From positions 1 through 34,666 of the forward strand of contig DATKWL010000116.1 in assembly GCA_035529555.1 (NCBI GenBank): a stretch of DNA of 34,666 nt. The letters are read 5' to 3'. The notes below the pieces were generated by a model. It worked only from the letters and a program-made list of their open reading frames with translations. It was not told where the DNA came from and searched no databases. This stretch comes from Dehalococcoidia bacterium. Its GTDB lineage: Bacteria > Chloroflexota > Dehalococcoidia > SZUA-161. The translations under genes were made by a program, and so were the position numbers. Positions within the stretch are counted from its first letter, which is position 1; the number at the start of each line of letters is the position of its first letter. This document shows, piece after piece, positions 6,011-20,777 of this stretch.

Positions 6011-6061
6011 AAAAAGAAAGGAGCAAGCATTATTTTGCTCGCCCCGTTTTTATCTATTGTA
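6011..6061 (-). promoter_or_regulatory. leader hairpin copy U1 (GGGGCGAGCA/TGCTTGCTCC + U-tract) with upstream TACAAT
   Basis: The minus strand reads TACAAT..AAAAACGGGGCGAGCAAAATAATGCTTGCTCCTTTCTTTTTCGGAGG..ATG(5995). The -35 element is weak. Confidence 0.55.
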
Positions 6062-6075
6062 AGCCCTATCTTTAT

Positions 6076-6753
6076 CTAGGTCTTAATTTCGCTCTTTCTC
6101 CTTTCTATAAATTCCCTGAGCCTTTCCCTGACCTCACTGCAGGTATCGCATTCCTCTTCCGGGATTGACCACAGCCGGCTCATGAACTCCTCGGTAACCT
6201 GGCTTGCCCTGGCCGCCGCCTGCTCCATGGTTTCAACGTCCTTTATGGCGGTGATGGAGTGCCTCAGCTCCCTCGACTGCTTGAGTGTCCAGACTGCGAG
6301 TTCCTTCTCGACTCCCTTGAGTTTGGCGATCTCATCCGGGGCAAGATCGATGCGCTCCATGACATTGAGCTCATCGAGGGCGATGCGGATTCGCCTGGTT
6401 ACCTCCGGCTGTCTGACGCCCTTATCTCGGGCAAACCTTATCCCCTCAGAAAGGGATGAGGAGGTGACAGAGAGATGGTCGCGGGAGCAGGGTAAACACG
6501 CCGTGCCTGCAGATATCGACCCCGGTGATGGGGATATCTCATCTTGACCTGGTGGCGGTTCTTTTAGCGTCTCAGGGGCTGTGGCAGGGGTTGCGGACTC
6601 CTGCAGGCCAAATTTCGCCGCGGCCTGGTCGAACTTATTGGCAACCTTGTCAATAATGTTCAGCCCAGTCTCAATGGCGTCACCCGCCTTGTCGATCACG
6701 GAGAACGCGTCCTCGGGGCGGGGCAATTTAGGCAATCTTGGCATACGAACCAT
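6076..6753 (-). CDS. hypothetical protein, N-terminal MPRLPKLPRPE motif, CLPC and CDTC pairs (225 aa)
   Basis: The track ORF 6076..6807 runs through the leader hairpin. GGGAG lies 8 nt upstream of ATG 6753. Confidence 0.6.
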   Translation of the reverse strand: MVRMPRLPKLPRPEDAFSVIDKAGDAIETGLNIIDKVANKFDQAAAKFGLQESATPATAPETLKEPPPGQDEISPSPGSISAGTACLPCSRDHLSVTSSSLSEGIRFARDKGVRQPEVTRRIRIALDELNVMERIDLAPDEIAKLKGVEKELAVWTLKQSRELRHSITAIKDVETMEQAAARASQVTEEFMSRLWSIPEEECDTCSEVRERLREFIERRKSEIKT

Positions 6754-6772
6754 GTGAGTTACTCCCGTCCTT

Positions 6773-6820
6773 AAAAAAGGGGGCAAGCCCTTCTCAGCGA
6801 AGGTCACCTGCCCCGTTTTT
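6773..6820 (-). terminator. leader/terminator hairpin copy U2
   Basis: The minus strand reads AAAAACGGGGCAGGTGACCTTCGCTGAGAAGGGCTTGCCCCCTTTTTT, directly before the SD of gene 6076..6753. Confidence 0.65.
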
Positions 6821-6842
6821 CCGGTATTTTCCTCCCCACCTT

Positions 6843-6871
6843 ATTATTGTTTCAGAGGAGGGAATTGTCAA
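6843..6871 (-). promoter_or_regulatory. sigma70-like promoter TTGACA-17-AATAAT
   Basis: The -35 element (6866-6871) overlaps the TGA stop of gene 6868..8292. The -10 element is at 6843-6848. Confidence 0.45.
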
Positions 6872-8292
6872 CCCTGGGGTCTGCCACCGAACAAGAGCTC
6901 ATCTTCAAGGTCCTTGGCCTCTCTCTCCAACACGACGGCTTCCTTCAGTCCCTTGGAAATTTTTGCCTTCTCCTGAGGGCTTTTCCTGACTGACTCCCCG
7001 CCACCGGTTAGGCCCATCAGCACTGGTTTTACATCGGACCTGATTCCGGTGACTTGGCTGTCAACGGAGGTCATTGCCTTTTCTAACAGTGCGAAGCGCC
7101 CCTCAAGTCCCCCCCGGTTTGACATATCTTTTCGCAACTCTTCTAGCCCTTTGGCCAGATTGCCCAACGCGCCTTTCACGGCATCCAGTTCTTGCTTCTG
7201 CAGCGAGTCCTTGAGCTCCCGGACCTCCGCCTGCAGCGCTCTCATCGTTTCAGAACCTTCTCCCTCACCCGTTTTTTTCAGCATCCCCAGCTGGTTCAGC
7301 TTGTCCAGCATCTCTATCTGCGTAACTCTTCCTTCCTCCCCGGTCTTTCGCAACAGCCCCAGCTGGTCCAGCTGGGCAAGCAATGCCCCCTCGCCGCCGC
7401 CATCACCCGTTTTTTTCAACATCCCCAGCTGGTTCAGCTTGTCCAGCATCTCTATCTGCGTAGTCCTTCCTTCCTCCCCGGTCTTTCGCAACAGCCCCAG
7501 CGAGTCCAGCTGGGCAAGCAATGCCCCCTCGCCGCCGCCCTCACTCTTTTTGAGCATCCCGAGCTTGTCTAACTTGTCCAGCGTGGTCATTTCATCGTCC
7601 CCTCCTCCTGTCTTGACTCCCATTGCTTCCTTCAAGCGTACTGACGCTTCTTCTCTCCTTGCCAGCTCCTCCACCGGGTCGATTGGCTCTCCCTTCTTGA
7701 GCGAGTCCTGGTACATCTGAAACACGGCAAACTCCCCGAAGCCTATCCTGCCCTTCGGGTTAAGTGTCCACGCGCCCTGCTCACCAACGATGAAGGCGGG
7801 CTCCTTTTTATCTCCGCTCTCCCTCTCCTCTATCTCTGCCAGGTCCTTCTTTACCAGCTTCTGGAGACTCTTGGCTTCGGAGAGGCTGACGGCTTTTTCG
7901 CCTTCTTTGGCCAAGCGTATCATCCCGCTTTCAGGGTCGACGGCATATTTCTCCTCCCCTTCCTCTTCTCTGGTTTCCCTTGTCTTGACGCCAGTCTCCT
8001 TTTCCATTTTCTGCCTTAGCCTTTTGGGGATGGGATGCTGGATTTCATCCGCCCAGAAGTTTACCACCTGCGTGACAAGCGACGGATGGACCCCCATCTC
8101 ACGCATCCTTGCCTCGACATCCTCTAGGTCTTCGAGCTTGCCCTTGGCACAGTGGTCGGCAACCATCGCGGCGTTCTTAATTTTGAATTTTTGGACAATG
8201 GCGGTGAACCTATCCACAATGTTGGTGAAGCTCTCTTCGCCTGTTGGTGCCTCAGCCCCCTCTTTCCCTTTTTCTTCTGTCCCGTTGCTCAT
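6868..8292 (-). CDS. acidic Glu/Lys/Gly-rich protein with tandem 46-aa repeats (474 aa)
   Basis: AAGGAGG lies 10 nt upstream of ATG 8292. Contains an in-frame 138-bp tandem repeat at 7266-7590. Confidence 0.7.
   Translation of the reverse strand: MSNGTEEKGKEGAEAPTGEESFTNIVDRFTAIVQKFKIKNAAMVADHCAKGKLEDLEDVEARMREMGVHPSLVTQVVNFWADEIQHPIPKRLRQKMEKETGVKTRETREEEGEEKYAVDPESGMIRLAKEGEKAVSLSEAKSLQKLVKKDLAEIEERESGDKKEPAFIVGEQGAWTLNPKGRIGFGEFAVFQMYQDSLKKGEPIDPVEELARREEASVRLKEAMGVKTGGGDDEMTTLDKLDKLGMLKKSEGGGEGALLAQLDSLGLLRKTGEEGRTTQIEMLDKLNQLGMLKKTGDGGGEGALLAQLDQLGLLRKTGEEGRVTQIEMLDKLNQLGMLKKTGEGEGSETMRALQAEVRELKDSLQKQELDAVKGALGNLAKGLEELRKDMSNRGGLEGRFALLEKAMTSVDSQVTGIRSDVKPVLMGLTGGGESVRKSPQEKAKISKGLKEAVVLEREAKDLEDELLFGGRPQG
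7266..7590 (-). repeat. 138-bp tandem repeat, 2 full copies plus a partial third, in frame within CDS 6868..8292
   Basis: Copies start at 7266 and 7404 (CACCCGTTTTTTTCA(G/A)CATCCCCAGCTGG...). They are nearly identical over 138 bp. A degenerate third copy starts at 7542. Confidence 0.85.
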
Positions 8293-8503
8293 AATAGTCG
8301 TTCCTCCTTTGCCCTTCTTGCGTTAAAAGCCAGACCTTACTTCCTTCACTCCACTTTATGTTCTGGACCAAGCCCGAGTGCTTCAGCTCGCTAAGTCTAG
8401 TAGAAACCGTGGTTAGCCTGGCGCCTATATAGTTTGCGATTTGATACCGATCGGCTCTGCCTATCCGGGCCAAATATCGGACTATCGCCTCCTTTCTTCT
8501 CAT
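8252..8503 (-). CDS. winged helix-turn-helix DNA-binding protein (83 aa)
   Basis: IVRYLARIGRADRYQIANYIGARLTTVSTRLSELKHSGLV fits the MarR/ArsR-type wHTH pattern. Its basic tail overlaps the next gene by 41 nt. Confidence 0.6.
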   Translation of the reverse strand: MRRKEAIVRYLARIGRADRYQIANYIGARLTTVSTRLSELKHSGLVQNIKWSEGSKVWLLTQEGQRRNDYYEQRDRRKRERGG

Positions 8504-8510
8504 TTTTTAA

Positions 8511-8565
8511 CGCCTTAACCCGTTAATTTGTGTCCTACACGGGGCTACGCCTTAAAATCGCCTTA
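8511..8565 (-). promoter_or_regulatory. three TTAAGGCG / TAAGGCG direct repeats upstream of the wHTH gene
   Basis: The plus-strand heptamer CGCCTTA occurs at 8511-8517, 8548-8554 and 8559-8565. The last two are 11 bp apart. Confidence 0.4.
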
Positions 8566-8610
8566 CAGAATCAAGCCGAGAAAGCCCCGCACTTTAGGGC
8601 TGGGGAGTAG

Positions 8611-8862
8611 TCACTTGTATCCTCTCTTCTTCAACATGTATTGCCTGAGATACTGCTCCCCCAGGTTGAAGCAGAAATTGCAGTAGTCGGTGAAATTGCC
8701 CCGGGGATGTCCCTCAATCAGCCCCTCTATGGTAGCGTATCTGGCAAACTTTTTGACTCGCTCATACGCATCAGCGGGCATGTAGATGTGGAGGCTGACC
8801 TTGCCGGGTTCGGTAGTTTCCGTTGCTTTTGGCTCTTCTTCGACTGTTTGCTCCTGCGACAT
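8611..8862 (-). CDS. ribbon-helix-helix-like small protein (83 aa)
   Basis: The track ORF starts at TTG 8898. GGAGG lies 8 nt upstream of ATG 8862. KVSLHIYMPADAYERVKKFA looks like an RHH strand-helix. Confidence 0.5.
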   Translation of the reverse strand: MSQEQTVEEEPKATETTEPGKVSLHIYMPADAYERVKKFARYATIEGLIEGHPRGNFTDYCNFCFNLGEQYLRQYMLKKRGYK

Positions 8863-8906
8863 CTCTAATACCTCCATCGCTTTAGCTGGGGGAAGCAACC
8901 CCCGCC

Positions 8907-8954
8907 AAAAAGGAGCGGGTCAAGTTACCTTCTCGGCGAAGGCTGCTTGCCCCG
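8907..8954 (-). terminator. leader hairpin copy U3
   Basis: The minus strand reads AACGGGGCAAGCAGCCTTCGCCGAGAAGGTAACTTGACCCGCTCCTTTTT, between the minus promoter and gene 8611..8862. Confidence 0.55.
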
Positions 8955-8964
8955 TTCTTCTGCC

Positions 8965-8993
8965 TTGACAAGTTGTAAAGTTAGATTTACAAT
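8965..8993 (+). promoter_or_regulatory. sigma70-like promoter TTGACA-17-TACAAT (rightward)
   Basis: -35 at 8965-8970 and -10 at 8988-8993. Confidence 0.6.
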
Positions 8994-9019
8994 ATACCAT
9001 ATGGGACAAAGGCTGTCAA
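8991..9019 (-). promoter_or_regulatory. sigma70-like promoter TTGACA-17-TATATT (leftward)
   Basis: -35 at 9014-9019 and -10 at 8991-8996 (reverse complement). Its -10 overlaps the rightward -10. Confidence 0.6.
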
Positions 9020-9123
9020 GCGTTACTACAGTCAATAGGACAAAGCACTCGTCGGAATTTCGACGGTTGTATGTCCGAAGGGGAGAAAGGGGGGGAATTT
9101 AGCGCTGCATTAAATTAAAAGGT

Positions 9124-9195
9124 AAAAAGGCGGTCAGTTGCTGAAACGAGAGTTTTGGCTGACCGTCTTTTCTCTCTATTCAGTAACTATCCCGC
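9124..9195 (+). repeat. 72-nt leader element copy A (bulged hairpin with GAGA tetraloop + U-tract)
   Basis: 69/72 identical to 20700-20771. Outer stem 9129-37/9159-67, inner stem 9141-47/9152-58, loop GAGA at 9148-51. Confidence 0.8.
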
Positions 9196-9240
9196 ACAAA
9201 AACGGGGCAAGCGAATCAATTGCTTGCCCTTTTCTTTTTT
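9196..9240 (+). terminator. leader hairpin copy (GGGCAAGCGA/TTGCTTGCCC + TTTTCTTTTTT)
   Basis: Stem 9205-14/9220-29, loop ATCAA. One nt different from the hairpin at 16429-16453. Confidence 0.7.
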
Positions 9241-9257
9241 CTGGCAGGAGTGGCGAC

Positions 9258-10064
9258 ATGAGAAAAATCGTAGTGGCTTCCATAAAGGGGGGTGTGGGGA
9301 AAACCACGGTGTCCTCAGGCTTGACACGAAGCCTCAAGAGGCTTGGGTCCAGAGTCGGCTACCTGGATGTGGACATTACCGCACCAACCGGTTCTGAGGC
9401 GTTTGGGCTGGAGAAGCCGCCCGACTGGGAACTGGATGCCGCTGCGGAAGGCGGCAGAGGGGCGATTGTCCCCTATAACGTAGAAGGCATACAGTTCATA
9501 ACACTCGCCTCACACTTCGGGCAAGCACCCGCCGTGCTGTGGAACGAAGAGAAAAAGATAGACGCCGCCAGGCAGCTGCTTCAGGGAGTGGTGGCCTGGC
9601 GGGACCTTGACTGGCTCATCCTGGATACCCCTCCCAGCTCGTCCGGCGAGATGCAAGCTCTTTACAAGTACATCACCGACCTTCACGGTGTGATACTCGT
9701 CTTTCAGCCCACTGACATGGCCGTCGCCGACCTTTATAGGACGCTTGATTTCCTCAAGTTCAAGAAGGTGGCGATACTCGGCCTGATAAGCAACATGAGT
9801 TATTGTATCTCGCCATCTGGGGAGAGGTTCTGGCCCTTCCTGTCGCCTGAGGTAGACCTCGCTGCCATCTGCGAGAATTTTGGGATTCCGCTTCTCGGCG
9901 AGATACCACTCACACCGGACAGAAAGGTGGTCGAGCAAGCATTTGACCGGATTGCCTCAAGGCTGGATGGGGCAAAGCCTGTCATCCTGAAGGAGGATAT
10001 CGCCAAGAGGCTGATCAGGGAAGGAAAAAGGAAGCTTCTGAAAGCGGCAGTAAGGAGACTGTAG
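9258..10064 (+). CDS. Mrp/NBP35 (ApbC)-family P-loop ATPase lacking the CxxC motif (268 aa)
   Basis: Has the deviant Walker A KGGVGKT, plus DVDITAP, LILDTPPSSSGE and LGLISNMSY. The N-terminal ORF extension 9138-9257 covers the leader hairpins and is rejected. Confidence 0.8.
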   Translation: MRKIVVASIKGGVGKTTVSSGLTRSLKRLGSRVGYLDVDITAPTGSEAFGLEKPPDWELDAAAEGGRGAIVPYNVEGIQFITLASHFGQAPAVLWNEEKKIDAARQLLQGVVAWRDLDWLILDTPPSSSGEMQALYKYITDLHGVILVFQPTDMAVADLYRTLDFLKFKKVAILGLISNMSYCISPSGERFWPFLSPEVDLAAICENFGIPLLGEIPLTPDRKVVEQAFDRIASRLDGAKPVILKEDIAKRLIREGKRKLLKAAVRRL

Positions 10065-10066
10065 CC

Positions 10067-10495
10067 ATGCGCACCGAAAAGACACTTGCTGAAGTTCTGA
10101 TTGACTTCGCCCTCGAGGACAAGGTAGCACACCAGGCGGTTATGGCCCAATTGCCCGCCGAGAAGATGGAGGCAATCACCGGCAGAAAAGGGAAACTGAT
10201 TGTCGACGGTGAGGAGGGTGGAGCATTTATCATCAGGATGACACCCTACGGCATCTATAGGGACAATAGCGAATCCGACCTCAGGAACGAGATATGGATG
10301 ACCGATACAACTTTTATCGACATAGTGATTGGGGAGCTTGAGCCGAAGACGGCGAGGGCTAGGGGCCAGGTGCTTTTCAGCGGTGACAGAAGCCTGTATG
10401 ACGCCGCCGAAATCATAGACATCTTTGAGAAGTGGATAATAACGAAGCTGAGGCCGGTTGCCCAAAAGATGATGAAAGCCGTTGGCAAGAGATAG
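10067..10495 (+). CDS. SCP2-like lipid-binding domain protein (142 aa)
   Basis: EIWMTDTTFIDIVIGELEPKTARARGQVLFSGD parallels the SCP2 pattern ([33 protein letters not shown]). AAGGAG SD. Confidence 0.55.
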   Translation: MRTEKTLAEVLIDFALEDKVAHQAVMAQLPAEKMEAITGRKGKLIVDGEEGGAFIIRMTPYGIYRDNSESDLRNEIWMTDTTFIDIVIGELEPKTARARGQVLFSGDRSLYDAAEIIDIFEKWIITKLRPVAQKMMKAVGKR

Positions 10496-10499
10496 CGGA

Positions 10500-10757
10500 A
10501 TGGCTTATGACCCGAATTGCTCGCTTTGCCGGAAAGAGCCGATTAAGGAGCAGCCTTATCATGATGAAATTTGCTGGGTTACATTCTGCCCTCTTCATGG
10601 GAATCCGATGATCGTTCTCAATGAGCATAGGCCGGAACCAACGCCGGAGGAGTGGGAGCACATAAAGGAGGTGAAGAATAAACTGTACCCAAACCTGAAA
10701 TTCAGAGGAGAGGGGATGCACTCTATGCCTCAGCATTTTCATGAACACCTTGTATAG
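10500..10757 (+). CDS. mini HIT-like protein (85 aa)
   Basis: Has an N-terminal CSLC, PMIVLNEHRPE, and a C-terminal HFHEHLV resembling the HxHxHxx histidine triad. The track ORF starts at TTG 10482. Confidence 0.45.
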   Translation: MAYDPNCSLCRKEPIKEQPYHDEICWVTFCPLHGNPMIVLNEHRPEPTPEEWEHIKEVKNKLYPNLKFRGEGMHSMPQHFHEHLV

Positions 10758-10759
10758 AA

Positions 10760-11425
10760 ATGATAGCTGAATTGCCCTTCGTTTTCTTAATCGCCGGGGC
10801 GGCCCTGGTTGGCCTGTGGATATCAAATATCCTCTTTGACCTAAAGGTCCCCCACTACGTCGCGCGTAAAATCGGCCACAGTGCCGGCGGGCTGGGCTTC
10901 CTGCTCTGCGCCCTATTATTTTCATCCGGGTGGTGGTCACTAATATTAGCCGCCATCTTTGCCGTCATGCTCGGGGGTGCCAGGTATGTCAGGCCCCAGA
11001 CTTTTCGTGGCGTGGGCGGCATCGGGCGGCCCGGGGAAGTGATGGCCGAGGTCTGGTTTCCCCTGGCTTCCTTGCCGGTTATCGGCGTGGGCTGGCTCTG
11101 GCTGGACAAGCCTTTGGTAGCCATATCCTGTCTTCTCTTTATGGCCTGGGGGGATATGATTACCGGAATTGTCCGCTCCCAGGTGTACGGCCGGCCAGTG
11201 AAGGGCCTGTGGGGTTCGGTGGCTATGCTCGCCACCTGCCTCGTGATCGCTTTGGCGTTTGTGCAACCGTTCTGGGTCGGGGCCGTGGCTGCCTTGGTGG
11301 CCACGGCTACCGAATGGGCCTGCGGGGATGTTGGGGTCATAAAATGCCTGGACGACAACCTGATGATACCGCTGACCAGCTTTGTCACTGTTTTCGGGAT
11401 ACTGGCTTTGATAGGGGAGCTATGA
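10760..11425 (+). CDS. polyprenol/phytol/dolichol kinase-like integral membrane protein (221 aa)
   Basis: Multi-TM protein. WGDMITGIVRS, KGLWGSVAM and DDNLMIPL match the CTP-dependent polyprenol kinase / CdsA superfamily pattern. Confidence 0.6.
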   Translation: MIAELPFVFLIAGAALVGLWISNILFDLKVPHYVARKIGHSAGGLGFLLCALLFSSGWWSLILAAIFAVMLGGARYVRPQTFRGVGGIGRPGEVMAEVWFPLASLPVIGVGWLWLDKPLVAISCLLFMAWGDMITGIVRSQVYGRPVKGLWGSVAMLATCLVIALAFVQPFWVGAVAALVATATEWACGDVGVIKCLDDNLMIPLTSFVTVFGILALIGEL

Positions 11426-11904
11426 GGGAACTGCTAACATTGCCCAATCCCATACTCAGGAAGAAGTGCCATCCGGTTGGCAACTTCAACAAAGAAATTA
11501 AGGAACTCATAGAAGAGTTGGCTGGTTATATGTATGCCCACCGCACCGATGAAATCGCCCCGATTGGGCTCACGGCCCCGCAACTTGGCGAATCCCTTCA
11601 GGTGATAGTCTTTTACCCCAACCCGGCCTTCCGGGAGAAGAAAGGGATAGAGGAGCTTATCAATCCGGAACTTGTCTATGCCAGAGAATCGATTACAGTT
11701 ACCGAGTCTTGCCTGAGCCTTCCGGGTAAAACATATACTCTCCAACGGGCAAAGCTGGTGAAGGTTCGAGGATACAACTTTGACGGACGCAAGAGGACAT
11801 ACAAAGCCAGGGCGCTCTTTGCCCAAATGTTTCAGCACGAACTAAATCACCTCGATGGCATACTCATAGACAGAATCGGAGAGCTTATCGTATTTAGGAA
11901 GTAG
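11422..11904 (+). CDS. def: peptide deformylase (160 aa)
   Basis: Has the three PDF motifs IGLTAPQLG, ESCLSLPG and QHELNHLDG. ATGA overlap with the upstream stop. The track ORF 10930..11904 is a spurious extension. Confidence 0.85.
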   Translation: MRELLTLPNPILRKKCHPVGNFNKEIKELIEELAGYMYAHRTDEIAPIGLTAPQLGESLQVIVFYPNPAFREKKGIEELINPELVYARESITVTESCLSLPGKTYTLQRAKLVKVRGYNFDGRKRTYKARALFAQMFQHELNHLDGILIDRIGELIVFRK

Positions 11905-11915
11905 AAGGAGAGGCA

Positions 11916-12803
11916 ATGAAAGATAAAATTAAAGCTCACATCGGGCTGGGGCGATTCTTCGCCCTGCCCATAGTTGTCTGCTCCGTCCTGCTTGGCGTTG
12001 CCCTCGTAGGTCACTGGAGCTGGCTATCTGCCATGGTGGCTCTCGGGGCCATATTCCAGATGGCCTATGCACACAGCTTTAACACGCTGCTGGATTTTTC
12101 CTGGACCGGGTTTGACAAGGGTGCTGAAGAGGAGCGGAGCCGAGGTAAGGTCTATACCCATGGCCAGCAGACGATAGCCGCCGGCATAATGTCCCCCAAA
12201 GAGGTGCTGGCCAACGGCCTTGTCTACCTTGCTATATCGGCTGTCTTCATCGGCATTGTCGCCTGGAAGGTATCACCGGTAATATGGATTATCTGGGCGA
12301 CTACAGCCTTGATGACGTTCTGGTATAGCTGGGGGAAGCTTCATTATCAGTGTGAGCTGGCACTGGGTATCGGCTTCGGCTCGCTGGCGGTGATGATGGG
12401 TATGGCCACCCAGCCGAACCCGGATTTCCTGCTGGCTTTTCTGGCGGGGATACCAATATTAATTTTGTTTGGATACGGGGCGGAGACAATGGATCAGTTC
12501 GCCGATGCGAGCGTGAATTGGAAGAGGGGATTGAGAAACTTCGGTGCCCTGGTGTGGAGAAACAAAGTCTCAATTACCATGTTCATCGTCTGGCTGCTTT
12601 GCGCCACCTTTCTCTCCCAGCTGTTTCTCATCGCCGCTGGAGTATTGCATCCGCTGACGGCACTAACACTCATCACCCTCATTCCCTTTTCTTTTTGCCT
12701 TCTCTTCCTGGAGATGAAACCCAAAGTCGGCATCATCTGGGGGCTGGGCGGAATTTATTTATATGGACTGCTACTACTGCTCGGGGAGGTACTTGGACGA
12801 TAA
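11916..12803 (+). CDS. UbiA-superfamily-like membrane prenyltransferase (295 aa)
   Basis: About 8-9 TM segments. Divergent Asp-rich motifs NTLLDFSWTGFD and DQFADASVNWKRG. GAAGGAGAGG SD. Confidence 0.55.
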   Translation: MKDKIKAHIGLGRFFALPIVVCSVLLGVALVGHWSWLSAMVALGAIFQMAYAHSFNTLLDFSWTGFDKGAEEERSRGKVYTHGQQTIAAGIMSPKEVLANGLVYLAISAVFIGIVAWKVSPVIWIIWATTALMTFWYSWGKLHYQCELALGIGFGSLAVMMGMATQPNPDFLLAFLAGIPILILFGYGAETMDQFADASVNWKRGLRNFGALVWRNKVSITMFIVWLLCATFLSQLFLIAAGVLHPLTALTLITLIPFSFCLLFLEMKPKVGIIWGLGGIYLYGLLLLLGEVLGR

Positions 12804-12826
12804 ATCCAAAGGTAAAAATAATATCC

Positions 12827-13849
12827 ATGGGCTATGCTGTCCCCGAGCATAGCTACAGTCAGGAAGAAGTATTCCAGGTGCTCGGGTACCCGCAGCGCTT
12901 CTGGAGGGTGTTCAAAGAGAGTGGGATTGAGAAGAGGCACCTTTGGGTACCGCCATGCGAAGCTAAGGAGATCAGCTGGCAGCAACAGCAGGAGATATAC
13001 AGGGTTGGGGCCGTAAAGCTTTCCCTGCAGGCGGTAAAAGAGTGTCTAGACAGCCGGAGCGCCGAGGATATCGCCTGCGTTGTCTATGGGAGTTGCACAG
13101 GATTTACCCCGGGACCGACGATAGCCCACTACCTGGCCAAAGAGTTATCTCTTGAACCCTCGACCTATTATACGAACATAATCGGGCAGGGATGCGAATC
13201 AGGCTTCCCCGGGCTCCGGAGAGCCTACGATTTTGCTGTAGCCACAGGAAAGCAAGCCCTGGTTGTCAACTGCGAGCTCTGCTCATGCACTTACTATCCC
13301 GAGCCTGCCGGCAGACCGGACCCTGAGAATCATTTTGAATGCTTGAGGAGCAATGCCATCTTTGCCGATGCTGCCTCCTGTGTTCTGGTGGGGTTTGATG
13401 AGAACCTGCGGCATCCTTCTATAATTGACATGGAGACACATACCAATACCGACTTCATCAATGAGCTCGGCTATACCTGGCGGTATGGCCGGCTAAGAGT
13501 TATGTTGTCGCGGCGGGTACCGGAACTGGCGCCACTGGTGGTTAAGCCGGCTGTCAATGCCGTGCTGCAGCGCCAGGGACTAAGTATTGACGACATAAGA
13601 TGGTGGGTGATCCACGCGGCTGGCAGCACAGTCTTGGACAACATAAGGGATGCACTTGGCATAGCCGAGGAAAAGGTAACTCTCTCGAGGGAAACATTGA
13701 GAAATTTTGGCAACACCAGCTCAACCTCGGTCGGCATTACCGGGAAGAGATTGATGGCGGGAGATATCCACCATGGAGATTATGCGGCGGTTTTGAGTAT
13801 CGGACCCGGCATGAGCGGCGGCATGACTCTCTTGCGCTTCGGAGGTTGA
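12827..13849 (+). CDS. type III polyketide synthase (chalcone-synthase-like, 340 aa)
   Basis: Cys-His-Asn triad contexts GQGCESG, WVIHAAGS and FGNTSSTS. The first ATG after the upstream stop is taken as start; the track extension overlaps the UbiA gene. Confidence 0.85.
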   Translation: MGYAVPEHSYSQEEVFQVLGYPQRFWRVFKESGIEKRHLWVPPCEAKEISWQQQQEIYRVGAVKLSLQAVKECLDSRSAEDIACVVYGSCTGFTPGPTIAHYLAKELSLEPSTYYTNIIGQGCESGFPGLRRAYDFAVATGKQALVVNCELCSCTYYPEPAGRPDPENHFECLRSNAIFADAASCVLVGFDENLRHPSIIDMETHTNTDFINELGYTWRYGRLRVMLSRRVPELAPLVVKPAVNAVLQRQGLSIDDIRWWVIHAAGSTVLDNIRDALGIAEEKVTLSRETLRNFGNTSSTSVGITGKRLMAGDIHHGDYAAVLSIGPGMSGGMTLLRFGG

Positions 13850-13850
13850 A

Positions 13851-14291
13851 GTGAGACTGCGAGATGCCCTGGCCAGCTTGCCTGATATAGACCACGAGAT
13901 TATTGACTGGTTGGCTGAAATAAATAGCTACAAGGGAGTATGCACCCTGAACTCATGTGCCGGACACAATAACCACTACAATCAACCATTTGTGATCCTG
14001 GCATTCTCCAAGGGCAGCCCCTTTCACAAGTTCTGCCACGAGATATCACCGGTGAGGTCTGATGTTAGTCCTGTGCTGACTCTGTTTTCTGACAAAGGCT
14101 GGGTAGCAGTATTTCCTCCAACAAAAGATATTAGTGTTGAACAAGGTAGCGGAGTAACACCAGAACGCTTGCCGACTGTTAGAAGGGACCTGTTTGAACG
14201 TATCATAGCAACACTGGAGAAGGTGATAGAAAGGAAGGCGAGTGTGAAGGAGATCGAGCGAAAAATAAAGGTGCTGGGGAGGGGGCTATAA
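13851..14291 (+). CDS. hypothetical protein (146 aa)
   Basis: GTG start with GGAGG 5 nt upstream. No family recognised. Confidence 0.55.
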   Translation: MRLRDALASLPDIDHEIIDWLAEINSYKGVCTLNSCAGHNNHYNQPFVILAFSKGSPFHKFCHEISPVRSDVSPVLTLFSDKGWVAVFPPTKDISVEQGSGVTPERLPTVRRDLFERIIATLEKVIERKASVKEIERKIKVLGRGL

Positions 14292-15224
14292 ATGGCAGTA
14301 TTGGTAACGGGGGGCACCGGGACGCTTGGTCGGGAGCTGGTTCACAATCTAGTCGCCAGAGGGCAAAAGGTAAGGATTCTGGCCAGAGACACTAAGAAGG
14401 CAGAGGAGCTTTTCAGCGGTTTGGAGATACTAAAGGGCAATGTCACCGAGGACAATCTTGGCCTGGTGGCTAATCCCCATGTTGATGCAGTATACCACCT
14501 GGCCGGTTTTCTTGACCTGAGTGAGAAACATCGAGACGACTTGTGGAACGTCAATGTCGCCGGCACGCAAAATGTCATCAAGCTCATGAAACTTTATGAG
14601 ATCCCCCACCTTTATTATTGTTCAACTGCATATACCCAGGGAAGGAACTGCTATGAGGAGACCAAAGCCACGGCCGAGAATTGGGTCAGGGAATCGGGCG
14701 TCAAGTACTCCATCTTTAAGCCCGGCATCATCGTCCCCAACTCCAGAACCTTCGAGATTGATAAGCCACAGCACCTTTATCTGGCGGCCAGGTTATGGGC
14801 CAGGCTCCACCGCCGGGCAGAGCCAATCAGGAAAAAATTAGAGAATAAACTTAATCTACCACCCAAGCAAATTAGCTGCCGGATAAAGGGTAACCCCAGT
14901 GCCACCTTGAACCTAGTTCAGGTTGACTGGATAGCAGAAAAAATGGCCAGCGTCCAGGACGAAGGCGTCTACATGCTCACCAGCCAAAGGCCGCTAAGGG
15001 TTTCTAAACTGCTGGAGTGGCTTGGTGAGGTCCTGTTTCTAAACCTCAAAGTGGAGCCTGAGTTCAAGCTGAGGCCACACGAGGCTTTATTTGACCGCCT
15101 GGCCAAGCCGTTCTTGGACTACGTACAAGATGATTTTTCCCGCTTTAAGCACTCATTCAATGACTGCCCTGCCATCAGCCGGGAATTTATTCAAAAGACA
15201 GTTATCAATAGTATTTTAAATTGA
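14292..15224 (+). CDS. NAD(P)-dependent extended SDR (epimerase/reductase family, 310 aa)
   Basis: VLVTGGTGTLGRELV Rossmann motif and a YEETK (YxxxK) motif. Confidence 0.8.
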   Translation: MAVLVTGGTGTLGRELVHNLVARGQKVRILARDTKKAEELFSGLEILKGNVTEDNLGLVANPHVDAVYHLAGFLDLSEKHRDDLWNVNVAGTQNVIKLMKLYEIPHLYYCSTAYTQGRNCYEETKATAENWVRESGVKYSIFKPGIIVPNSRTFEIDKPQHLYLAARLWARLHRRAEPIRKKLENKLNLPPKQISCRIKGNPSATLNLVQVDWIAEKMASVQDEGVYMLTSQRPLRVSKLLEWLGEVLFLNLKVEPEFKLRPHEALFDRLAKPFLDYVQDDFSRFKHSFNDCPAISREFIQKTVINSILN

Positions 15225-16407: not shown

Positions 16408-16418
16408 TGGTGAAAAGG

Positions 16419-16464
16419 CAGAAAAATGGGGCAAGCAAATCAATTGCTTGCCCTTTTCTTTTTT
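16419..16464 (+). terminator. intrinsic-terminator-like hairpin between promoter and RBS
   Basis: Stem 16429-38/16444-53 (10 bp), loop ATCAA, then TTTTCTTTTTT at 16454-64. Confidence 0.7.
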
Positions 16465-16477
16465 GGTGAGGTTGTAA

Positions 16478-17191: not shown

Positions 17192-19699
17192 ATGGAACGA
17201 GCTGAACTGGCTGACGCACCAGAAATCGCAACGATAGAAATAACAGAACCTCTTCCTGAGAGCGGGGTCGTTGACAGCACCTACAAGATTAAAGGCTCAG
17301 TCAAAATGTTTGATGCCATAGGCGCCCCACCCTGGGTTTACGCCGAGGTTAGGTTAAAGGAGTGGGACAAGCCGGAGGTTGCTGAGGAGGTCAGTTACGA
17401 GCGCGGCTTTCCCATGCCGATAACCGGTGAATTTACCATTGAGTTCAAGCCGGAGAAAGAGGGAGATTACGAAATTACTGTTCTGGCTACCCCAGCACCT
17501 TTATCCCTACCCGTCATCGGGGTATTCCCGGTCACCGGCAAGAGCGATGTAATGAAGGTTGCCGTTGGCGAAAGGCCGCCAGCGGTGTTCAGATTCTCGG
17601 ACGTAACGATTGACGAGAATGATATAGCGCTTACCGACCACGATGCTGATTCCGGATTGCTGCTGGAGAAAACCACGGCCGATTATCTGGACATAACCCC
17701 GGCCTTTGAGTGGACGGGTCCCAGCAAGAAGGCCACTGTAAGCATAAAGGCCGGATACAGGGATTGGCTCGGTGCTTTTAGCCCCAAGACGGGGGCTTAT
17801 ACGCGCACCATTACGCTGCCTGAATCACCTACTACTCCCTATTCCGGCGAACTTGAAAGCCCGATAAGGATTCCACTTACCGCCTGCAGCGGCATTACCG
17901 ATGGCGCCATAGAGATGGTGCTCAAGATAGCCAGGGAGCCCGACTACATCAGTCGTATCTGGAACGTCTACGCCACCAAAGCTCCGCCTGAAGCGTTAGA
18001 CTTCGATTTAACAAGGCCTAGCGTCTCCCAAACCCCCGTAGACCCGGGAACCATCATAGACATCACTTGCCCCATTACCTCGAGGTGCGAGAAGGCGGTT
18101 GATGCCCGTGCCAAGGTCATTATCTATGAGGGGTCAGCTCTTCCCGGTCATGGTAGTAAGATTAAGCAATACGATAGCGATGTGTTCCATATAGAGCCGA
18201 ACGAGAGCACAAATGTCGTTGTCCACCACACGGCAGTCAAGGGCACCATAGACAGGCGGGATGTGGAGGTGGAGGTATACGTTGACACGCAGCTGGTCAA
18301 GGAGAGCGAGTGGGATGACGTGTTCTACGTCGGTGTACCGCCAGAAGAGGTAATCGACTTTAACCTGACAAGACCCACAGTTACTCCAGCGGAAATCGCT
18401 CCGGGAACACCTATCACGATAACGTGCCCGGTGACCTCGGCCTGCACCAAGGAGCAAACGGCCACCGCTCAGGTTAAGATTTATGAAGGCAGTTTTTATG
18501 CCGGCCACGGGACCCTGATAACCACCAAGAATTCACCAGCCTTCTCCATAGCACCAGGCCAGGCTTATAATGTCATCGTTCAACACACCGCTATAGCCGG
18601 CACAATTGACCGTCGTGATGTTGAGGTTGAGATTTATATCGGTGGCAAGCTGGTCAAGGAGAGCGAGTGGGATGATATTTACTATGTAATTATCCCCCCC
18701 CCACCACCCGTGCCTCCCACATCTGATATTAGGAACTTTGACTTTCAGCCAGTGAAGGGCACTTATGATGTTGGAGACAGAGTATCCTATAGTGCCCCCT
18801 ACGAATACAAGGGCAAGGCTCAAGGCGGCTGGCTGACAATCTACCTCGGCACAGGAGTGTATCCCTATTTCTCTATCAAGCATACCTACCCCAGGACTGC
18901 GGTAAGTTTTGGTGAGGCGATGGACTGGACATTGGGCCAATTGTCAGGAAACTTCCTCCTGCCAAGCACACTGGTGCCCGGCCAGACATACAATGTCAGG
19001 GCTAAATTAGAGACTGCTGATGGCAAGCAGATAATTGACACCGACTGGGGAGTGATTACCATCCCCGAGATAACACCGCCTCCACCGCCTGTGCCACCCG
19101 CGGCGGACATCAGGAATCTCGACCTTGTGGCCACCAAGGGCACCTATGACATTGGCGACAGAGTGCCATTCACTTGCAATTATGAATACAAGGGAAAGGC
19201 GCAAGGCGGCCATCTTGTCCTTTCACTGGGCACCGGCGTATATCCAACCTTCAGCACGGTGGTAAACTACTACCCGATGCCAGTCAGCTTCGACGAGGCG
19301 ATGGACTGGACCCGGCGCAGTTTTACGGGAACTTTCCTTTTGACTGAAGCCCTTAATCCCGGGCGGACCTATAACACCAGAGCCAAGCTGGAAACTCTAG
19401 ATGACCGCACGAAGGAAACCGACACCGACTGGGAGGTGGTGAGAATACAGGAAGCGGCACCTCCCGGAGAATATACCGTTTTTGTCCTAGCGCTGCCCCT
19501 TGCTGCCGGATGGGTCACCAAGGAGCCGGATAAGGACTCATACGCTTATGGCGAAACGGTGAAGCTGACCGCCATGAGCGCCCCCGGCTACAAGTTTTCT
19601 TACTGGCAAGTTGACGGCGAGTGGGCGGGCTATAGCAGCACCCTGACCCTCATGGTAACCACGGATCTCGAAGTGAGAGCGTATTATACAAAGGTGTAG
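17192..19699 (+). CDS. large multi-domain repeat protein, candidate virion or surface protein (835 aa)
   Basis: GGGGAGG SD. Has an internal 118-aa repeat x2 (aa 265-501) and a 127-aa repeat x2 (aa 502-755), each B copy preceded by PPPPPVPP. The C-terminal approx 80 aa fit the InlB B-repeat-like pattern (YGETVKLTAMSAPGYKFSYW). No signal peptide. Confidence 0.8.
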   Translation: MERAELADAPEIATIEITEPLPESGVVDSTYKIKGSVKMFDAIGAPPWVYAEVRLKEWDKPEVAEEVSYERGFPMPITGEFTIEFKPEKEGDYEITVLATPAPLSLPVIGVFPVTGKSDVMKVAVGERPPAVFRFSDVTIDENDIALTDHDADSGLLLEKTTADYLDITPAFEWTGPSKKATVSIKAGYRDWLGAFSPKTGAYTRTITLPESPTTPYSGELESPIRIPLTACSGITDGAIEMVLKIAREPDYISRIWNVYATKAPPEALDFDLTRPSVSQTPVDPGTIIDITCPITSRCEKAVDARAKVIIYEGSALPGHGSKIKQYDSDVFHIEPNESTNVVVHHTAVKGTIDRRDVEVEVYVDTQLVKESEWDDVFYVGVPPEEVIDFNLTRPTVTPAEIAPGTPITITCPVTSACTKEQTATAQVKIYEGSFYAGHGTLITTKNSPAFSIAPGQAYNVIVQHTAIAGTIDRRDVEVEIYIGGKLVKESEWDDIYYVIIPPPPPVPPTSDIRNFDFQPVKGTYDVGDRVSYSAPYEYKGKAQGGWLTIYLGTGVYPYFSIKHTYPRTAVSFGEAMDWTLGQLSGNFLLPSTLVPGQTYNVRAKLETADGKQIIDTDWGVITIPEITPPPPPVPPAADIRNLDLVATKGTYDIGDRVPFTCNYEYKGKAQGGHLVLSLGTGVYPTFSTVVNYYPMPVSFDEAMDWTRRSFTGTFLLTEALNPGRTYNTRAKLETLDDRTKETDTDWEVVRIQEAAPPGEYTVFVLALPLAAGWVTKEPDKDSYAYGETVKLTAMSAPGYKFSYWQVDGEWAGYSSTLTLMVTTDLEVRAYYTKV

Positions 19700-20658: not shown

Positions 20659-20688
20659 TTGACAAATTTCTGTCCCTGTGTTTAGAAT
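20659..20688 (+). promoter_or_regulatory. sigma70-like promoter TTGACA-18-TAGAAT with an AT-rich upstream tract
   Basis: -35 at 20659-64 and -10 at 20683-88. The sequence AAAAATAAACTAAATAAAAAC lies upstream. Confidence 0.6.
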
Positions 20689-20699
20689 TGTAGCGGGAT

Positions 20700-20771: not shown

Positions 20772-20777
20772 CCGCTC

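Follow-up and report, generated by a model that had tools for sequence, protein, structure and literature searches.

Organization of the operon

A 34,666-nt contig from a Dehalococcoidia bacterium (DATKWL010000116.1; referred to at its full length as the window) carries genes for a type III polyketide synthase (PKS) and a UbiA-like prenyltransferase in one compact cluster, which raised the question of what compound is made there and whether the pathway belongs to a bacterial chromosome or to a mobile element. The cluster comprises nine co-directional, tightly packed open reading frames on the plus strand (9258-15224), with gaps of 0-23 nt and a single overlap of 4 nt. All nine were found where the initial annotation had placed them, and gene calls made independently on identical metagenomic contigs yielded the same nine genes. 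They are preceded by a sigma-70-type promoter (8965-8993, plus strand; TTGACA-17-TACAAT) matching the consensus at 11 of 12 positions, and a reading of the sequence placed a divergent partner promoter on the minus strand (9019-8991). The promoter at 8965-8993 and the terminator-like sites computed in the window are bacterial expression signals. On balance, we regard the nine genes as one transcription unit.

The nine genes are not a fixed set, as gene content was found to vary among relatives. In addition to the UbiA protein, the PKS, and a short-chain dehydrogenase/reductase (SDR), the conserved core encodes a MinD/Mrp-like ATPase, an orphan protein with eight transmembrane (TM) helices, and a small protein that may bind lipids. 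The three other genes are accessory inserts confined to the window lineage, and in one relative lineage the operon is interrupted by a gene for a B12-radical SAM enzyme. The first insert encodes a short peptide deformylase (PDF; 160 aa, 11422-11904, plus strand) that matched PF01327 (5e-35), scored 102.7 bits against TIGR00079 (cutoff 103.95), and contains the metal ligands, i.e. the Cys of ESCLS and the two His of HELNH; it is missing from the operon in relatives, and its homologs are metagenomic in 70 of 70 cases. The second, an 85-aa protein (10500-10757, plus strand; 91 aa if TTG at 10482 is used), has a CxxC and a C-terminal HFHEHLV, a HIT-like motif by eye; its earlier designation as a mini-HIT protein was left unconfirmed by Pfam and NCBIfam HMM searches, which gave no match. 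Outside the window lineage it was found only in L023, with weak similarity in L107. The third, a 146-aa protein (13851-14291, plus strand), bears a weak TYW3/Taw3-like N-terminal motif (PF02676, E 9e-4, sub-threshold; NCBIfam PRK04235, E 9e-5) and has no homolog in the relatives. Our slight preference is that the PDF, mini-HIT-like, and TYW3-like genes were acquired by the window lineage.

Proteins of the conserved core

HMM searches confirmed, above Pfam thresholds, the identities proposed earlier for the ATPase, PDF, UbiA, PKS, and SDR. The type III PKS (12800-13849, plus strand; annotated ATG at 12827, 340 aa) matched Chal_sti_synt_N/C and ACP_syn_III_C, while its score against the NCBIfam DpgA model (153 bits) was under the cutoff of 425. 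Its closest PDB matches were THNS 1u0m (1e-25) and PKS11, with the catalytic Cys, His, and Asn all aligned, and this triad (C123, H263, N296) is intact and invariant in 23 relatives. The annotated ATG drops about nine N-terminal residues found in all homologs, which start 8-11 residues earlier; the start used by relatives, overlapping the UbiA stop and following the SD sequence GGGGAGG, reads ATA at 12800 in this contig, an irregular start. The UbiA protein (295 aa, 11916-12803, plus strand) is a divergent intramembrane prenyltransferase of its superfamily (PF01040, 4.5e-10; 39.7 bits vs. a cutoff of 34.2) with approximately 7-9 TM helices by hydropathy. PDB sequence searches returned no match for it, and its first motif, NxxxD...D, differs from the canonical NDxxDxxxD. 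Across 11 relatives, no variation was seen at N56, D60, D67, and D193xxxD197. Both genes are intact and under constraint, and the catalytic residues of the enzymes are invariant across relatives of 33-92% identity.

The extended SDR (310 aa, 14292-15224, plus strand; motifs GGTGTLG and YEETK), the gene for which was found in every relative, belongs to the lipid-type NAD_binding_4/3-beta-HSD class (Pfam NAD_binding_4, 1e-19; also Epimerase and 3Beta_HSD); its top NCBIfam models (PRK07201, HpnA, SdmB, OleD, and thioester reductase) likewise point to the lipid type. The first gene of the operon encodes a ParA/MinD/Mrp-like P-loop ATPase (268 aa, 9258-10064, plus strand; PF10609, ParA/NUBPL, 1.3e-42) with a deviant Walker A motif (KGGVGKT) and a basic, amphipathic C-terminus, which is kept in relatives at 34-64% identity. 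Unlike Mrp, it has ISPSG (by eye) in place of the CxxC motif, and it scored 124 bits against MrpORP, well under the cutoff of 450.

The two remaining core proteins did not bear out the functions first proposed for them. The 221-aa membrane protein (10760-11425, plus strand; eight predicted TM helices, AF2 pLDDT 96) had been called polyprenol-kinase-like, an identity that failed Pfam, NCBIfam, PDB profile, and Foldseek tests: none of 56 family members matched a Pfam or NCBIfam model, the PDB profile search gave no match, and the best Foldseek hit had an E of 0.59. In a set of 1.84 billion representatives, the family accounts for only 113 clusters. D132, E185, and D199 are invariant, and conservation reaches at least 90% at R36, G131, G136, D198, and N200. 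Since this protein has no known relative, the role proposed for it below is a guess. The 142-aa soluble protein (10067-10495, plus strand), whose position is kept in alignments with relatives, may be an SCP2-like lipid binder; this earlier assignment was not confirmed, as the match to PF02036 (E 0.0067) was sub-threshold and a search of the PDB with the family profile found nothing.

A leader shared with a module of putative particle proteins

The initial annotation had described a leader common to the operon and a particle-like module, and this proved to be real. A 73-nt repeat at 9123-9195 recurs at 20699-20771 with 96% identity. On the plus strand, it contains a terminator-like element (9125-9176; repeat D2), a hairpin of about 20 bp with a U-run downstream, in which 97.5% of cells are paired under the terminator pairing, with nine pairs showing compensatory changes and none of 500 shuffles as good; an alternative, antiterminator-type pairing extends to about 9193 (81% paired), and the MFE and centroid structures of the leader differ (z = -4.1). 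A second hairpin, AACGGGGCAAGC..GCTTGCCC followed by a T-run (9201-9240, plus strand), is likewise a terminator-like site and belongs to an element-wide conserved motif present in seven copies vs. 0.23 expected and at the same positions in relatives. Promoter and two-hairpin leader occur a second time at 20659-20850 (plus strand; promoter 11/12 consensus; repeats D2, D4, and D6), ahead of genes p09-p15. In alignments with relatives the two-hairpin leader is conserved with compensatory changes, i.e. it is terminator/antiterminator-like and supported by covariation.

The conserved, probably co-regulated block p09-p15 (20873-24194, plus strand) encodes putative particle proteins and keeps its synteny with the lipid genes at every informative locus. 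Its p11 (21551-22309, plus strand; AF2 pLDDT 86.5) combines a helical N-terminus with a jelly-roll and gave weak capsid or C1q-like Foldseek matches (capsid E about 1e-3, TM about 0.28); two of its 123 homologs are of viral-metagenome origin. The p12-p15 proteins are beta-rich. In all nine loci with enough upstream sequence (9/9), the distance from the lipid genes down to p11 is 8-9.5 kb; the membrane protein, UbiA, and SDR are constant there, and the PKS is usually present too. Since the same leader stands before the jelly-roll module, lipid synthesis is probably induced together with particle or envelope building.

Genomic context

The order membrane protein-UbiA-PKS-SDR was recovered on Loki's Castle contigs of 63-93 kb, a 97.6-kb NCBI contig, JGI contigs of 78-104 kb, and two IMG/VR UViGs. 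Every syntenic relative came from a metagenomic contig no longer than 104 kb rather than from an ordinary chromosome: besides the two IMG/VR UViGs there were virome entries and short contigs, most of which had been binned to Dehalococcoidia. In a search of 185,579 species genomes, close PKS relatives were confined to contigs of at most 25 kb, mostly binned to Dehalococcoidia/Chloroflexota. The relatives' contigs are rich in ORFans. A 69-kb IMG/VR contig encodes beta-helix proteins, an MmcB-like nuclease, a DNA methylase, TnpB, a tyrosine recombinase, RadC, a clamp loader, and HNH, and one relative carries NUMOD3 and an intein. An ArdC-like protein was identified by eye.

The mobile-element-like context proposed initially therefore stood, in that the locus is part of a non-chromosomal, mobile or virus-like element. 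Pfam, PHROGs, and tblastn searches of the parts examined revealed no terminase, portal, HK97 or double-jelly-roll capsid, or packaging ATPase. Because terminase, portal, and HK97 capsid went undetected, a virus is probable rather than shown. We lean towards an undescribed family of large extrachromosomal elements, at least 80-104 kb, from anaerobic-sediment bacteria; metagenomic binning makes Dehalococcoidia the most likely hosts.

Proposed product and alternatives

Taken together, these data make it somewhat better than an even chance that the operon, expressed together with the putative particle genes, directs synthesis of a prenylated polyketide lipid encoded by the element. The PKS would convert an acyl-CoA starter and malonyl-CoA into a phenolic or pyrone polyketide, to which UbiA would join a polyprenyl chain within the membrane; the SDR would act as reductase on a keto or thioester group. 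Three further proteins, namely the ATPase and the SCP2-like and orphan membrane proteins, may handle, flip or localize the hydrophobic product. The resulting lipid would insert into a membrane and may have a role there or in the virion. Transcription would start at the strong sigma-70 promoter and require read-through of both hairpin/U-run elements of the leader, so that a mechanism such as antitermination could switch on lipid synthesis and particle or envelope building together.

The best-surviving alternative, which we nevertheless consider unlikely, is that PKS, UbiA, and SDR make a polyketide quinol or quinone of the alkylquinone or 'polyketide quinone' type, a membrane electron carrier boosting or rewiring host respiration during infection; the operon would then serve auxiliary metabolism and have no structural role. 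Streptomyces and Myxococcus oxidize alkylresorcinols to alkylquinones (PMC10896814), and the pairing of PKS and UbiA resembles quinone-type tailoring, as does a cluster on a cellular Dehalococcoidaceae contig (L025) that adds a methyltransferase and an FAD aromatic hydroxylase to these two enzymes. The window itself encodes a UbiE/COQ5-like methyltransferase (32060-32755) with 29% identity to that of L025. However, a hydroxylase/oxidase is absent from both operon and window, neither the MinD-like ATPase nor the putative lipid-transfer protein is needed for a quinone, and a fixed syntenic core beside putative particle genes with a common leader would be unusual for a sporadic metabolic gene.

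Less probable still is a glycan carrier, in which UbiA, SDR, and the membrane protein would build or modify a polyprenyl-phosphate-linked sugar by decaprenyl-phosphoribose-type chemistry, feeding downstream glycosylation of surface or particle proteins, with the PKS or an acyl carrier protein (ACP) adding an acyl/aryl decoration. Downstream of the p-module, the window and nearly all relatives do have a glycosyltransferase-like gene (s1) along with sugar-nucleotide genes, but the sugar genes lie 9 kb away in a separate transcription unit; similarly, the SDR also fits the Epimerase and GDP_Man_Dehyd models, yet lipid-type models (NAD_binding_4, HpnA, SdmB, OleD) score it best. One lineage (L107/L121) can do without the PKS: ParA, the membrane protein, UbiA, and SDR are retained, an ACP takes the place of the PKS, and no PKS gene lies within 10 kb. 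This lineage also speaks against the prenylated polyketide favored above, since the invariant chemistry of the module may not be polyketide-based. Against the glycan carrier, most lineages retain a strongly conserved PKS.

We give slightly less credence to a small biosynthetic cluster on a plasmid-like element whose product, a prenylated phenolic compound secreted as an antibiotic or signal, benefits the host cell, the ParA protein being the partition ATPase of the plasmid. Bacterial alkylresorcinols frequently have antibiotic activity (PMC10896814), a ParA-type ATPase opens the operon, and the undetected virus hallmarks together with the tyrosine recombinase, RadC, and ArdC-like protein would suit a plasmid. 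Nevertheless, the ATPase is of Mrp/NUBPL type, not plasmid ParA, and adjoins no ParB or centromere partner, the operon has no exporter, the leader is common to the operon and jelly-roll/beta-rich proteins, and relatives occur in IMG/VR and viral metagenomes.

Finally, it is very improbable that the operon is an ordinary chromosomal one from an uncultured bacterium and looks mobile through fragmented assembly: most contigs are indeed short and binned into MAGs, and the membrane protein has a distant homolog on a cellular 146-kb contig, but contigs of up to 104 kb showed no housekeeping gene in the ~20-60 kb examined on each, nearly all neighbors are ORFans, mobile-element genes are present, and no large genome contig among the 185,579 species carries a copy.

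Comparison with known systems

The initial annotation knew of no virus- or element-encoded pathway of this kind, and among 50,697 GenBank phage records we found neither a UbiA homolog nor a close type III PKS. As it had also proposed, the pairing of PKS and UbiA follows a logic known from the clusters for prenylated alkylresorcinols/hydroquinones, for which AgqA, whose products are prenylated (PMC10896814), provides a precedent. The gene set of L025 is agq-like and represents a cellular analogue, whereas the operon studied here has no monooxygenase or methyltransferase and is thus not an agq cluster. In Azotobacter cysts, alkylresorcinols replace membrane phospholipids (PMC4824345); for the operon, the conserved core module suggests that the element makes an unusual membrane lipid of its own.

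Results

An operon with an intact type III polyketide synthase and a UbiA-like prenyltransferase

The nine ORFs of the operon lie on the plus strand (9258–15224) with spacings of 0 to 23 nt and a single 4-nt overlap, and they are served by a sigma-70-like promoter at 8965–8993 (TTGACA-17-TACAAT, 11 of 12 consensus positions). Identical contigs from Finnish-type soil (JGI 33000315xx) and in ENA assemblies carry the same nine genes according to independent predictions, which together with these features confirmed the nine-gene arrangement proposed in the initial annotation. Beside the operon promoter, a divergent partner promoter drives minus-strand genes. The GC content of the operon (0.51–0.54) is the same as that of its flanks, and the window contains no tRNA genes. 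The window comprises the entire contig (34,666 bp), sister contigs lengthen it by less than 1 kb, and an exact-match search for the window in IMG/VR found none.

The prenyltransferase scored above the Pfam gathering cutoff for PF01040 (39.7 versus 34.2 bits) and is a polytopic membrane protein with at least seven hydrophobic segments, which bears out its description as UbiA-like. Residues N56, D60, D67 and the D193xxxD197 motif are invariant in 11 relatives (30–80% identity). Its first aspartate motif is non-canonical, since it reads N56xxxD60 and then D67 as compared with NDxxDxxxD, and the second, DxxxD, is kept. No sequence relative of this protein was found in the PDB. The polyketide synthase (PKS) contains the N- and C-terminal Chal_sti_synt domains (Pfam PF00195, 2.4e-13; PF02797, 2.9e-10; PF08541, 2.2e-15), and its best solved relatives in the PDB are THNS (1u0m, 1.2e-25) and M. 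tuberculosis PKS11 (2.6e-23). The motifs GQGC(123)ESG, IH(263)AAG and GN(296)TSS align with the Cys-His-Asn triad of 1u0m, and C123, H263 and N296 are invariant in 23 relatives (59–92% identity), so that its assignment as a type III PKS holds. Every one of its 312 homologs is metagenomic. Because its score against the DpgA equivalog model (153 bits) fell below the cutoff (425), no PKS product could be assigned.

The homologs of the PKS begin 8 to 11 residues upstream of the annotated ATG at 12827, typically overlapping the UbiA stop codon. At the corresponding position (12800; region 12797–12830) this contig has an ATA preceded by a Shine-Dalgarno sequence (GGGGAGG), and a start at ATG 12827 would drop about nine conserved N-terminal residues. 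Judged from the sequence, this implies that the PKS would either be translated by ATA (non-canonical) initiation or be a slightly truncated enzyme without part of its first strand. The gene is otherwise not degraded. The possibility that the PKS or UbiA gene is a pseudogene, which the initial annotation had raised against its own reading, was rejected, as both are full ORFs with invariant catalytic residues. The best models for the short-chain dehydrogenase/reductase (SDR) at the end of the operon are of the lipid type (NAD_binding_4, PRK07201, HpnA, SdmB, OleD and thioester reductase; Pfam and NCBIfam).

An orphan membrane protein and the accessory proteins

The 221-aa membrane protein, annotated as polyprenol-kinase-like, matched no Pfam or NCBIfam family. 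No Pfam match was found among nine of its relatives, nor among 56, and two profile searches of the family against the PDB were negative. Its AF2 model (pLDDT 96) consists of eight helices and gave no match in Foldseek (best E value 0.59; CdsA 4q2e, E value 2.4, TM 0.34). As all these tests were negative, the 'polyprenol kinase' label was dropped; neither a sequence nor a fold relationship to the CTP-dependent polyprenol/phytol/dolichol kinases (CTP_transf_1-like) was found. The RKxGH, GDxxTGxxR..KGxWGS and DDN segments, which we take to resemble VTE5/DolK motifs, serve as a lead only. Residues D132, E185 and D199 are invariant, and R36, G131, G136, D198 and N200 are at least 90% conserved. The protein represents an orphan membrane family, with only 113 clusters among 1.84 billion representative proteins.

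The ATPase at the head of the operon contains a ParA/NUBPL P-loop domain (Pfam PF10609, 1.3e-42), but its scores against the Mrp/ApbC equivalog models of NCBIfam were far below the cutoffs (124 versus 450 and 79 versus 348). Since ISPSG stands at the position of the CxxC motif, the Mrp-like label, in its sense of an Fe-S carrier (Mrp/NBP35/ApbC), was given up, and the protein is more aptly called an Mrp-derived ATPase of the MinD/ParA type. The 142-aa protein, proposed to be an SCP2-like lipid binder, matched PF02036 at an E value of 0.0067 (17.2 bits, under the cutoff of 21.3), and a profile of seven relatives found no match in the PDB; its likeness to SCP2 thus stands as a sub-threshold one. 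In the 85-aa protein, a CxxC and a C-terminal HFHEHLV were recognized by eye only, and no HMM match was obtained at E≤0.01 (Pfam) or E≤0.1 (NCBIfam), so that the mini-HIT label is a motif-based one. The 146-aa protein carries a weak TYW3-like motif at its N-terminus.

The peptide deformylase (PDF) is correctly named, as it matches PF01327 (5.2e-35) and carries GLTAPQLG, ESCLS and HELNH with the metal-binding Cys/His/His; its TIGR00079 score (102.7) is just under the cutoff (103.95). It belongs to a clade of 70 short metagenomic PDFs, mostly of 150–170 aa, and because all 70 homologs are metagenomic, no host can be read from them. Some members of this clade reside on other phage-like contigs that have nothing else in common with the element family of the window. 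Two such contigs, L179 (SDBT01002765.1) and L180, encode DNA_pol_B_2 (faint), AAA_24, LAGLIDADG and UDG proteins, and the PDF is all that they hold in common with that family.

A conserved core on mobile-element-like contigs

Comparison by tblastn found the membrane protein, UbiA and SDR in every lineage, down to 31–36% identity, and the ParA-like ATPase wherever the contig extends to it. The PKS is present in most lineages (33–92% identity). In one lineage, represented by the metagenomic contigs L107 (3643–5769) and L121 (3497–5623), an 81-aa ACP (PP-binding) is located between UbiA and the SDR, and there is no PKS within 10 kb; it may therefore be UbiA, the SDR and the membrane protein, and not the polyketide, around which the invariant chemistry is built. 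In the Loki's Castle lineage (L011, 8662–10011; L131, 250–1599), a B12-binding radical SAM enzyme, which could C-methylate the lipid, is placed between UbiA and the PKS. The PDF and the 146-aa protein were found by tblastn in the lineage of the window only, and the 85-aa protein in this lineage and in contig L023 (80% identity), with weak similarity in L107. The lipid genes lie 8–9.5 kb upstream of the gene for p11, a jelly-roll protein, at each of the nine loci that extend 9 kb or more upstream of it, and the p10–p14 block and the glycosyltransferase-like gene s1 are likewise conserved.

The left flank consists of 19 small, mostly acidic minus-strand ORFs which, among those searched, gave no Pfam match at E≤0.01 except for one Crp-type HTH. 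A basic HTH protein of 83 aa (8252–8503, minus strand; weak HTH_Crp_2 match) is encoded beside the divergent promoters and may regulate the region of the promoter or leader. A 474-aa coiled-coil protein (6868–8292, minus strand), found family-wide, is encoded divergently from the operon, and its gene contains a 138-nt tandem duplication (7262–7537); as it measures 427–428 aa on near-identical contigs of other samples, the repeat copy number is polymorphic. On the right, the ORFans p01–p15 are followed by a sugar-modification cluster (24467–33800) with an RfaE-like kinase/adenylyltransferase, a radical SAM/SPASM protein, an epimerase, a TPP enzyme, an SDR, two methyltransferases and an ADH. The GT-A-like s1 precedes this cluster and is conserved after p15 in nearly all relatives; its homolog in contig L106 harbors an intein with a LAGLIDADG endonuclease inside, and that relative also has NUMOD3. 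The methyltransferase at 32060–32755 shows a weak UbiE/COQ5 match and 29% identity to a methyltransferase encoded beside UbiA on contig L025, and its substrate might be the lipid and not a sugar.

Syntenic relatives include Loki's Castle marine-sediment contigs of 63–93 kb, an NCBI contig of 97.6 kb, JGI contigs of 78–104 kb and two IMG/VR UViGs of 41 and 69 kb. In a search of 185,579 species-representative genomes, PKS relatives of at least 41% identity were confined to nine contigs, none longer than 25 kb (seven binned as Chloroflexota/Dehalococcoidia, one as Aenigmatarchaeota and one as Thermotogae), and the next match was an actinobacterial PKS of 29% identity. The 69-kb IMG/VR contig encodes two beta-helix proteins (680 and 721 aa), an MmcB-like nuclease, an N6/N4 DNA methylase, an IS605 TnpB, a 204-aa tyrosine recombinase, DUF1643, ASCH, DnaJ, RadC, a DNA-polymerase-III delta'-type clamp loader, HNH, SAP and HTH proteins and, by eye, an ArdC-like protein. 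Housekeeping genes were not encountered in the inspected parts of the window and its relatives. With these mobile genes and ORFan neighbors, the surroundings of the operon are mobile-element-like, as had been suggested, and not ordinary chromosome. The family is widespread in marine sediment, subsurface, soils and groundwater and is associated with Dehalococcoidia.

Putative particle proteins and the question of a virus

Hallmark genes were searched for with Pfam, PHROGs and NCBIfam in about 90 proteins of the window and its relatives, covering between about a third and 90% of any one genome inspected. Pfam, PHROGs and tblastn against 50,697 phages revealed neither a terminase or packaging ATPase nor a portal or a capsid protein of the HK97 or double-jelly-roll type, and tblastn of p11, p13 and a 1.9 kb-equivalent of downstream proteins against the same phages was also negative. 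The proposed check of the flanks for phage or plasmid hallmarks hence yielded mobile-element genes on a relative contig and no virus hallmark. The p11 protein (21551–22309) has 123 homologs (44–97% identity), among them two 'viral metagenome' records and one Dehalococcoidales MAG. Its AF2 model (pLDDT 86.5) combines a three-helix N-terminus with a jelly-roll sandwich, for which Foldseek returned weak matches to IBDV VP2, the SPV1 capsid protein and C1q/TNF-like proteins (E about 1e-3, TM about 0.28). Because no hallmark gene was found and these capsid matches are weak, we call the element 'virus-like' and not a 'virus', a virus being its most probable identity.

Two further products of this region are of note. 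The p06 protein (17192–19699; 835 aa, 332 to 1084 aa among relatives) is acidic, with internal repeats of roughly 120 aa (357–384 nt spacing) and a C-terminal InlB B-repeat, and it is likely a surface or fiber protein. The p08 protein (19956–20633) is the most conserved of the p-block (52–72% identity), with invariant His59 (GHG) and Cys94 (SCQTG); its likeness to a caspase-like dyad was noted by eye, and no sequence match was found in the PDB. As the lineage of contig L104 lacks p08 and has a subtilisin (Peptidase_S8) at its place, p08 may be a maturation protease.

A structured leader precedes both the operon and the particle-like module

A two-hairpin leader with U-runs is located downstream of strong sigma-70 promoters at 9118–9250, before the operon, and at 20694–20850, before the p09–p15 block (20873–24194, plus strand), and it is also found at 16415–16471. 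A 73-nt repeat (9123–9195) recurs at 20699–20771 with 96% identity, both copies are then followed by AACGGGGCAAGC...GCTTGCCC(C) hairpins and T-runs, and both leader copies stand downstream of promoters with 11 of 12 consensus positions. The 12-mer AACGGGGCAAGC, which is half of the conserved hairpin, occurs seven times in the window with at most one mismatch (6037, 6777, 8945, 9201, 16425, 20781 and 20817), versus 0.23 expected. Relatives carry it at the homologous positions ahead of ParA and of p09, and it is retained letter for letter where the proteins are only about 65% identical. The initial claim that the particle-like module has the same leader as the operon is thereby borne out.

In an alignment of ten leaders, 97.5% of the cells of hairpin 1 were paired and nine pairs showed compensatory changes, as compared with 0 of 500 shuffles as good and with 37–55% in slid controls. 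An alternative pairing, which is moderately supported, would sequester the 5' arm of hairpin 1 (81% paired versus 34–57% in slid controls); in the leader of the window it is the MFE structure, and the centroid is the terminator form (z = -4.1). No Rfam family matched the leader. Its predicted folding has the anatomy of a terminator/antiterminator switch, and it resembles a new type of attenuator or target for antitermination. Since it precedes both the lipid operon and the jelly-roll module, the leader argues for their co-regulation, which would proceed, for example, by late-gene antitermination acting through it.

Discussion

The combination of enzymes suggests the following pathway: the PKS would make a phenolic or pyrone polyketide, the UbiA enzyme would prenylate it in the membrane, and the SDR would reduce a keto or thioester function; the product would be handled or localized by the MinD-like ATPase, the orphan membrane protein and the small protein that possibly binds lipids. 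From gene content and order, we favor a structural membrane or particle lipid as this product, because the module belongs to the core of the element, is syntenic with the putative particle genes and has its leader in common with them. Three rival products are possible and less probable, namely (i) a quinone-type electron carrier, (ii) a polyprenyl-linked glycan carrier, which would feed the glycosylation genes lying downstream, and (iii) a secreted metabolite, which would make the element plasmid-like. An archaeal host or an archaeal lipid pathway (DGGGPS/CarS) was rejected, as the contig has consensus sigma-70 promoters, intrinsic terminators, Shine-Dalgarno sites and a PDF, and no CarS/CdsA similarity was found. 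The earlier proposal of a prenylated phenolic lipid is therefore supported in part; its product, virion role, viral identity and host are what we infer.

Taken to its full extent, the structural-lipid reading would make these contigs a new lineage of large membrane-containing Dehalococcoidia viruses with jelly-roll-type particle proteins, which, by a core, late-expressed pathway switched by a dedicated antitermination leader, make a prenylated polyketide lipid that enters the virion or an assembly membrane. We regard this joint proposal as rather improbable. If true, it would describe the first group of prokaryotic viruses with an encoded multi-enzyme membrane-lipid pathway, including a new membrane-enzyme fold. 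Bacterial viruses are thought to borrow the lipids of their hosts, and almost no viruses of Dehalococcoidia are known to us. Being associated with this class, widespread and without detectable similarity to known phages, the family may mark an unrecognized lineage of viruses or elements. A PKS/prenyltransferase pathway that is conserved and encoded by an element would demonstrate the ability of mobile elements to produce a specialized membrane lipid of their own, and lipid biomarkers from anoxic sediments would have to be attributed differently. Besides being of genuine interest, the finding brings several parts within reach of testing: the small type III PKS/UbiA/SDR set, the orphan 8-TM family, whose fold is confidently predicted and in which acidic residues are invariant, and a new regulatory leader of structured RNA.

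Viruses of prokaryotes with an internal membrane and a jelly-roll capsid (Tectiviridae, Corticoviridae, sphaerolipoviruses and the SPV1 type) resemble the window in the small jelly-roll block adjoining lipid genes and in the weak match of p11 to the SPV1 and birnavirus capsid proteins, which is too weak (E about 1e-3, TM about 0.28) for an assignment of p11. The window family differs in its far larger genome, and neither a packaging ATPase of the FtsK/HerA type nor a double-jelly-roll capsid protein could be identified in it. To our knowledge, these viruses take host lipids and encode no lipid synthesis. Host-type enzymes are carried by cyanophages as well, namely lipid desaturases (PMC5776448) and PDF (PMC3660681), and the short PDF of the window (160 aa) fits this known theme of phage-borne PDFs. 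However, the auxiliary genes of cyanophages are single and sporadic, whereas here a multi-enzyme pathway forms a fixed core module. The 50,697 GenBank phage records searched contain no homolog of UbiA, and for the PKS they gave only three remote FabH-like matches (about 24% or less) and no close one, and a literature search found no described virus or element with a type III PKS and UbiA, which agrees with the initial remark that no such pathway was known from a virus or element.

Among chromosomal systems, the ars genes of Azotobacter vinelandii (alkylresorcinols and alkylpyrones) comprise dedicated type I fatty acid synthases, ArsA and ArsD, and, unlike the operon, no prenyltransferase. The type III PKS products of ars and of Streptomyces srs (phenolic lipids) serve in a dormant and resistant form as structural lipids of the membrane or envelope, and in Azotobacter cysts alkylresorcinols replace the membrane phospholipids (PMC4824345), which provides a functional analogy for a particle or envelope lipid here. 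The agq cluster of Actinoplanes missouriensis is closer in content, as a type III PKS adjoins a UbiA-family prenyltransferase in both and a prenylated phenolic lipid is the expected product. AgqB is reportedly a monooxygenase, AgqC a methyltransferase and AgqD the UbiA-like prenyltransferase. According to a later paper, the alkylresorcinol products of AgqA are prenylated and hydroxylated (PMC10896814, citing Awakawa et al. 2011). The agq-type product logic applies to the operon in its PKS and UbiA and not in the monooxygenase and O-methyltransferase, both absent from it: the window encodes no monooxygenase, and its methyltransferases occur only at 31356–32755, in a separate unit. Since neither a hydroxylase nor a methyltransferase is inside the operon, it is not of the agq type. 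It adds four unrelated conserved partners (the extended SDR, the orphan 8-TM protein, the MinD/Mrp-like ATPase and the small SCP2-like protein), it resides on a virus-like element and not, as agq, on a chromosome, and its PKS is at most 29% identical to the actinobacterial enzymes found in genomes. An agq-like set is also present on L025 (CAZOMF010000009.1, a Dehalococcoidaceae MAG; 6054–11014), where a class A flavin aromatic hydroxylase, a SAM methyltransferase and UbiA are encoded divergently from a type III PKS, next to genes of cellular appearance, as judged by eye (CoA-transferase, amidohydrolase, histidine kinase). Among relatives that look cellular and lie outside the element, it is the closest (PKS 41%, UbiA 33% and methyltransferase 29% identity), and it differs from the window in having the FAD hydroxylase and in lacking ParA, the membrane protein, the SDR and the p-module. 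This set is likely the source or a sister of the genes of the element. The PKS and UbiA clusters are accordingly of a known kind, and it is the element around the operon that is possibly of a new one.
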